702 bases of DNA from Escherichia coli. GTDB taxonomy: Bacteria > Pseudomonadota > Gammaproteobacteria > Enterobacterales > Enterobacteriaceae. The stretch lies in NCBI RefSeq assembly GCF_003334385.1, contig NZ_QOWN01000148.1; one strand, 5' to 3'. Below the pieces are notes generated by a model. That model saw nothing but the letters and a program-made list of their open reading frames with translations, was not told where the DNA came from and searched no databases. Every line of letters starts with the position of its first letter. The first letter of the stretch is position 1. Positions 1 through 702 of the stretch are shown piece after piece. The position numbers and the translations under genes are program-made.

Positions 1-667
1 CCGCCGTCGCGCTTTTAGTACTGATATATACATCGTGGATTTTGCGTCGCGCATGAGCCCAGCATCCTGCTTCCGTCAACGCGCCGCCTTCACGTTCGGC
101 ACTGAACAGCCGATCGTAACCATTAAACGCATCTGCCTGCAGGATACCCCGGAAGGGACGAAGGTGCTGCTCCGGATGTTTACCCTGATGATCCGGTGAG
201 TAGGCGAACCAGACCGCCGGAGGCTCTGGCGAACCGGCATTCCTGTCATCCCGGACATACGTCCAGATATATCCTGTTTTCGCCTTCTTCCTGCCCGGCG
301 CCAGTACCTTTACCGGTGTGTCGTCAGTGTGAAGCTTGAAGGTATTCATCACGTAACGGTACAGGGCATCATTCAGTGGCGTCATTAACTGGCAGCACTC
401 GTCAACCCAGTTGGAGAGTAATGCACGGCTCAGTTCGACGCCCTGGCGGGCAAAGATTTCACTCTGACGATACAATGGCAGGTGTTCGCAGTATTTTCCC
501 GTTAACACGCGGGCAAGTAACCCCGGGCCCGCGACACCACGCTCTATCGGACGGGACGGTGCTTCAACGATGCAGTCACATTTTGTACAGGCTTTTTTTA
601 CCCGTTCTGTGCGGATCACTTTCAGGGCTCTTCCGCAACCTGGGTGGAGATTTTCATGCCAGTGGAC
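1..667 (-). CDS. tnpC: IS66-family transposase (TnpC/ORF3-like DDE transposase), internal fragment; 3' end continues beyond the left window edge, 5' side closed by tandem stops at 668..673 (probably frameshifted)
   Basis: Reverse-strand translation in the frame with codons ending at + strand 667 gives 222 codons with no stop: [222 protein letters not shown]. Motifs I recognise as IS66-family signatures: Cys/His-rich zinc-finger-like segment (572..646), [10 protein letters not shown] (455..484), HTDDTPV with the first catalytic Asp (about 311..331), YVRDDRN (239..259), AVWFAYSPD (191..217), [10 protein letters not shown] with the second catalytic Asp (116..145), CWAHARRK (41..64). No in-frame ATG lies upstream within the window, which is why an ATG-to-stop ORF finder misses it. 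Confidence 0.85.
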
Positions 668-702
668 TCATTACCCTCTGCCTGAGTAGTTCAAATCCTG
701 CT
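1..702 (-). mobile_element. Interior of an IS66-family insertion sequence (transposase-coding portion only; no terminal inverted repeats in the window)
   Basis: The whole window is covered by an IS66-type transposase reading frame plus its upstream continuation in another frame. In IS66-family elements tnpC is the third and largest ORF, so the element ends and the tnpA/tnpB ORFs are expected outside the window (tnpA/tnpB to the right, the 3' IS end to the left). This is inference from family organisation, not seen in the sequence. Confidence 0.7.
1..702 (-). pseudogene. Probable frameshifted IS66-family transposase: upstream segment in a second reading frame (657..701, ...[15 protein letters not shown]) joined to the main frame (1..667) by an apparent 1-nt frame change near 668..673
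   Basis: The main frame is preceded by tandem TAA TGA stops (minus-strand sense; + strand 668..673). A second frame on the same strand is open from the right window edge to a TGA at 654..656 and ends ...LLRQRVM. Read together, ...LLRQRV / [12 protein letters not shown] resembles the conserved LPRE-x-VV-(x)n-C-x-C-G region that precedes the zinc finger in IS66-family transposases. That is the pattern expected from a 1-nt indel, not from a real gene boundary. Confidence 0.5.

Follow-up and report, generated by a model that had tools for sequence, protein, structure and literature searches.

The 702-nucleotide stretch of Escherichia coli DNA analysed here, which we refer to as the window, is very probably the non-functional meeting point of two insertion sequences, where the middle of an IS66-family tnpC gene is joined to the terminal repeat and the transposase 3′ end of ISEc38. 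The window corresponds to positions 3896–4597 of a metagenome contig, L004, whose numbering we use for most of the surrounding locus. An earlier note had taken the window to be purely the interior of one IS. Judged from its sequence, the window is instead an IS-in-IS junction (IS66 tnpC plus an ISEc38 end), with the IS boundary at 625/626 and the ISEc38 inverted repeat at 626–648, and the corrective outcome of the analysis is that an edge of ISEc38 lies in the window, which is not only IS66 interior. It is already known in kind, being one more case of nested-IS decay in an accessory region of the Escherichia/Shigella type.

The larger part of the window, positions 1–625, holds on the minus strand an internal piece of an IS66-family tnpC that is equivalent to residues 165–375 of the 537-aa TnpC, or about 39% of the protein. 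The minus strand of this part matches the NCBIfam model NF033517 ("IS66 family transposase") at 1e-64 and 219 bits, where the curated cutoff is 180, and the tnpC frame matches Pfam DDE_Tnp_IS66 (PF03050) at 8.3e-58. When aligned with the intact 537-aa TnpC of E. coli STEC1590 (WP_105475127.1, locus L002), 205 of 211 amino acids are identical (97%), and at the nucleotide level window 1–628 is 97.0% identical to the L002 tnpC. Taken with the model matches, this bears out the earlier proposal of a degraded IS66-family copy, as does a window GC of 0.548 the description of its base composition as roughly balanced. In a megablast search, window-related DNA was found in 3,928 of 5,426 complete E. coli genomes, so the similarity to IS66 is not due to chance. 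The tnpC frame runs on leftward past the window, and its right end is cut by the ISEc38 insertion.

Several motifs of the transposase can be read from the translation of the minus strand. HTDDT (317–331), which lies inside the Pfam DDE_Tnp_IS66 match, is what we presume, from knowledge of the family, to be the region of the first catalytic Asp of the IS66 DDE transposase, and QADAF (125–139) presumably carries the second; the conserved motif CWAHARR (44–64) follows QADAF. The Glu-bearing motif DNNAAE, which we take on the same family knowledge to supply the Glu of the DDE triad, falls outside the window and is present in the translation of L004. Near the right end of the fragment, CTKCDC (572–589) supplies what we read, from knowledge of the IS66 family, as the second of two cysteine pairs in a TnpC zinc finger. 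Its partner, CPEC in intact TnpC, sat upstream of the ISEc38 insertion and is now lost.

The sole gap in the alignment of the window with the L002 TnpC amounts to two codons, which changes APAPS to APS. It traces to an in-frame 6-bp deletion (552–563, minus strand) in which one tandem copy of a GGCGCY hexamer is gone, with the gap at window 557/558. Differences from the STEC1590 tnpC are unevenly spread, with 4 in window 1–500 and 16 in window 501–600, and over 501–600 the window differs from the ISEc43 copy (L013) by 2 substitutions and the 6-bp gap. Comparison of the copies suggests that the tnpC fragment may be a mosaic produced by recombination among IS66-family elements.

The boundary at 625/626 was placed by a three-way alignment, in which the intact tnpC of L002 loses all similarity to the window past ~628, while the E. 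coli SK6988 locus (L001), annotated as IS66::ISEc38, is 100% identical to the window over 558–702. The megablast matches divide in the same region: those that span the whole window overlie two annotated features, and the closer IS66 matches (96.9%) end at ~631. Immediately left of the boundary, at 618–625, lies ACTTTCAG, probably the 8-bp target site of ISEc38 in tnpC and one copy of its target-site duplication; the same octamer flanks both ends of ISEc38 in L001. Immediately to the right, where the L002 tnpC diverges, is the 23-bp terminal inverted repeat of ISEc38, an element of the ISL3 family, with the sequence GGCTCTTCCGCAACCTGGGTGGA (626–648). In L001 the inverted repeats form a 23-nt pair, GGCTCTTCCGCAACCTGGGTGGA and TCCACCCAAGTTGCGGAAGAACC, that is 91% complementary and of the GGCTCTT... 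type, and the far repeat is also found in L004.

Beyond the repeat, the minus strand at 654–701 encodes the 3′ end of the ISEc38 transposase, consisting of the last 15 codons and the stop (654–656). The product read from 701 to 654 is identical at 15 of 15 positions to residues 525–539 of WP_075262665.1, which is annotated as an ISL3-like element ISEc38 family transposase. The same gene continues outside the window, where the ORF at L004:4549–5043 matches the ISL3 model NF033550 at 5.6e-33 and the other half of the ISEc38 transposase in L004 matches at 2e-77; Pfam DDE_Tnp_ISL3 is recorded for the called ISEc38 genes of the locus. Relative to the RefSeq-annotated ISEc38 of SK6988, window 626–702 is identical, down to the 23-bp inverted repeat and the transposase C-terminus, and the remainder of the ISEc38 in L004 is 99.1% identical. 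The two elements differ in that an IS186-like insertion interrupts the one in L004, whose far target duplication is down to 3 bp. ACTTTCAG is intact on either side of ISEc38 in L001, but only ACT survives on the far side in L004, because of a later deletion. Since the far copy is not intact in the window's own locus, the signature of ISEc38 transposition rests on the L001 junction, where the IS66 is only 89% identical to the window.

The earlier note had accounted for all of the sequence as a transposase and its frameshifted upstream portion, that is, the whole window would be one IS66 transposase gene whose right part is the same gene out of frame. We consider this exceedingly unlikely, and the three-way alignment refutes it. 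The minus-strand frame does stay open to position 667, and the stretch to the right of the boundary superficially resembles the CPECGSEL zinc finger of intact TnpC; however, the L002 tnpC has no similarity to the window beyond ~628 in any frame, and 626–702 is 100% identical to the annotated end of ISEc38, the inverted repeat and the transposase C-terminus included. In a six-frame translation of the window, a single long frame is open, running from 667 to 2 on the minus strand; this 222-codon frame is chimeric, with its first 14 codons in the ISEc38 repeat and the rest in tnpC. The first 14 codons (626–667) are chance read-through of the ISEc38 inverted repeat, and the NCBIfam match within the frame starts at residue 14. 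The sequence "PGCG" in the read-through mimics the CPECG of the real zinc finger and is probably what prompted the reading of an upstream continuation. An open frame that crosses an IS boundary can in this way mimic a "frameshifted upstream portion".

Insertion sequences are a classic source of mis-assembly, and several of the carriers of the junction are short-read metagenome contigs, so we also weighed whether the junction is an artefact of collapsed IS repeats. The probability of this is vanishingly small, given that the junction is present in nine complete E. coli genomes or plasmids, SK6988 included, and in a 131-kb NCTC contig, and that the junction in L001 has a proper 8-bp target duplication. 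In all nine, the IS66::ISEc38 junction has the insertion point and orientation of the one in the window. Their IS66 tnpC genes are only 88–89% identical to that of the window, and, unlike the window's locus, the SK6988 locus keeps tnpB, a frameshifted gene in the position of tnpA, and the 5′ part of tnpC.

The insertion point, ACTTTCAG joined to GGCTCTTCC, is shared by the window (618–648), L001:6623–6653, and L003:14306–14336, in IS66 copies that are only 88–89% identical. The use of the same ISEc38 octamer in diverged IS66 copies could point to a target hot-spot and not to common ancestry; alternatively, it could stem from one ancestral insertion followed by recombination. Of the 424 E. coli records that carry ISEc38-like sequence at ≥99% identity, just nine have the junction. 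On these counts, we rejected the idea that ISEc38 targets IS66 exclusively.

A scan of metagenomes for the junction returned three contigs, in which identity to the window is 100% (L004), 99.9% (L005), and 88% (L003), and a scan of species-representative genomes for the junction and for a deletion-specific 34-mer found neither. By exact-protein look-up of the adjoining regulator, the same locus was located in GCA_900449675.1, GCA_012649405.1, GCA_012312565.1, and GCA_032505985.1 and in further metagenome contigs. The window is present at 100% identity in L004 and in L007–L012, which comprise the four NCBI assemblies and metagenome contigs.

The junction sits inside a larger nest, the outer shell of which is an IS66 element at L004:1932–8385. 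Its ends, GTAAGCGTTAACGG... and ...CGCTTAC, are of the GTAAGCG type and match those of the intact L002 element, and it is flanked by 8-bp target duplications, TATTACTA, at L004:1924–1931 and 8386–8393. The terminal repeats and 8-bp duplication that the earlier note had proposed to look for in the flanks are present, ~2 kb from the window on its left side and 3.8 kb from it on the right. NCBIfam models identified what is nested within this shell: ISEc45, an IS4-family element, the two ISL3 halves, and a fragment of IS2 OrfB. On the left, an ISEc45-like element of the IS110 family (L004:~2151–3597) splits tnpC near codon 475 and encodes a 377-aa protein that matches NF033542, an "RNA-guided transposase" model, at 2.9e-83. 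The combination IS66::ISEc45 is also annotated in E. coli MB19 (L006). On the right, ISEc38 occupies L004:4521–7591 and is split by an IS186-like element of the IS4 family (L004:5042–6379) that carries CATAAGCGCTAACTTAAGGGTTG as inverted repeats and has left a clean 10-bp duplication, CTGTAAATCC. Past ISEc38 lies a fragment of IS2 OrfB (L004:7595–8336; PRK09409, 3.9e-165), which runs to the end of IS2.

The order of sequences at the right edge of the nest records a deletion. Over L004:7592–8385, ACT comes right after the far ISEc38 repeat and is joined directly to a point within IS2 orfB; the IS2 fragment in turn gives way to the final 49 bp of the left end of IS66. The earlier note had expected tnpA and tnpB nearby. 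Neither is found in this copy, where the interval from the far ISEc38 end to the last 49 bp of IS66 holds only the IS2 OrfB fragment; the relatives L002 and L013 have the tnpA-tnpB-tnpC trio. Because tnpA and tnpB are missing, we file the copy as an IS66 remnant and not as an intact member of the family. The ACT remnant, the IS2 orfB sequence, and the 49-bp IS66 end together indicate the deletion of tnpA, tnpB, and the 5′ ~165 codons of tnpC, with the IS2 fragment now in their place. Compared with known E. coli IS66 (the STEC1590 copy, ISEc43/ISEc23-like), the element is alike in its TnpC DDE domain (97% amino acid identity over residues 165–375), in its GTAAGCG ends, and in its 8-bp duplication, and it differs in the loss of tnpA, tnpB, and the tnpC 5′ end, in its interruption by ISEc45 and ISEc38, and in the 2-codon in-frame deletion.

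From this arrangement, we propose the following history. A single insertion of one IS66 element would have come first, 49 bp past the 3′ end of an AraC-family regulator gene, with duplication of TATTACTA. ISEc45 would then have entered it at tnpC codon ~475, and ISEc38 just after codon 165, where ACTTTCAG was its target, and IS2 would have inserted 49 bp from the left end of IS66; these three events are placed in no set order. The IS186-like element would subsequently have entered ISEc38 and duplicated the 10-bp CTGTAAATCC, after which a deletion that ran from inside IS2 to the far end of ISEc38 would have taken tnpA and tnpB along with ~165 codons from the start of tnpC. A whole transposase gene is kept by neither IS66 nor ISEc38, and we infer that neither would be able to encode its own transposase here, and that the window would do nothing alone.

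Searches of the window for anything else were empty, in keeping with the earlier statement that it contains no independent novel locus. Rfam returned no family at E≤1, a tRNA/tmRNA scan found none, PADLOC gave no match for any of the window ORFs, among them a 123-aa antisense ORF that crosses the junction, and scans for promoter-like sites and for internal repeats found none in the window. One 13-nt tandem was weak (score 39) and was judged to be due to chance, as was a terminator-like hairpin inside the ISEc38 inverted repeat, which is within the expectation from shuffled sequence. Rfam at the gathering threshold also found nothing in 20.8 kb of context (L008), and the non-coding ends of the ISEc45-like element matched no Rfam family.

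One finding speaks against simple debris, which is that the truncated tnpC frame remains open for 370 codons, unusual in old debris. The ORF, of 353–370 codons, could on this account have been retained, possibly as a domesticated or regulatory fragment. Its frame is open across the whole fragment, and at least six independent assemblies or contigs carry it at 100% identity. Even so, we hold retention to be very unlikely. The N-terminal 164 residues are gone, half of the zinc finger among them, and the C-terminal ~62 residues have been replaced by read-through into ISEc45; the window has no promoter-like site, and tnpA and tnpB have been lost. Moreover, the identical copies share all of the nested ISs, so recent common descent, and not selection, accounts for their conservation. 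The identical copies of the locus are probably recent, which tempers the objection from the open frame, and we keep to the reading of the window as a non-functional IS66–ISEc38 junction.

The surroundings of the nest are of more interest than the window itself. As the earlier note had anticipated, the region is accessory, has neighbouring cargo genes, and has a shift in GC content: in L004, L005, and L008, the flanks place a nest of five IS types, at ~48–53% GC, within cargo DNA of 31–37% GC. The left flank (L005:611–4529 and L004:1049–1882) carries a regulator and a chaperone-usher fimbrial operon, together with scraps of IS3, IS91, and IS630 elements. The regulator is a 277-aa AraC-family protein whose gene ends 49 bp before the end of IS66, and its best NCBIfam relative is HilD, though far below the cutoff of that model. 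The fimbrial operon consists of a 247-aa chaperone, an usher of ~812 aa, and a subunit. The right flank (L008:18943–20469) carries a dispersin-family protein and an FtsX-domain protein. The former, of 122 aa, matches PDB 2jvu at 1.5e-19, is 44% identical to Aap, and has a signal peptide followed by GG; the latter may be AatP-like, as read from its position beside the dispersin gene.

The IS nest stands between the AraC-family regulator and the dispersin/Aat-like genes, beside the divergent fimbrial operon. AggR/Rns-type regulons with CexE/Aap-Aat have the same architecture as these flanks (PMC7344145, PMC7478709). The cargo is nonetheless far from any counterpart in sequence: against the plasmids of PLSDB, identity does not exceed 34% for the usher and 45% for the regulator, and the parts of the cargo overall are only 34–55% identical to any counterpart. 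At the DNA level, only IS parts of the flank query matched PLSDB, and a megablast of the regulator and the fimbrial operon against the 5,426 complete E. coli genomes gave no match. Among public assemblies, the regulator is listed in 279 blocks. We considered and rejected the identification of the flank as the AggR/AAF system of EAEC, since no plasmid AraC regulator exceeds 45% identity to the one here and the dispersin homologue shares 44% identity with Aap; by these comparisons the flank is a relative of that system and not the system itself. The AraC regulator, the fimbrial operon, the dispersin-family coat protein, and an Aat-like exporter may possibly make up the regulon of an uncharacterised colonisation-factor system, a proposal that we offer as tentative and regard as less probable than its failure. 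What is worth passing on from this analysis is the apparent regulon around the nest, which is divergent, low in GC, and of virulence type, rather than the window. In the NCBI assemblies, a 115-aa gene with a weak match to Pfam Microcin (PF03526) lies ~2 kb past the fimbrial operon (positions 73–420 of L007 and L008).
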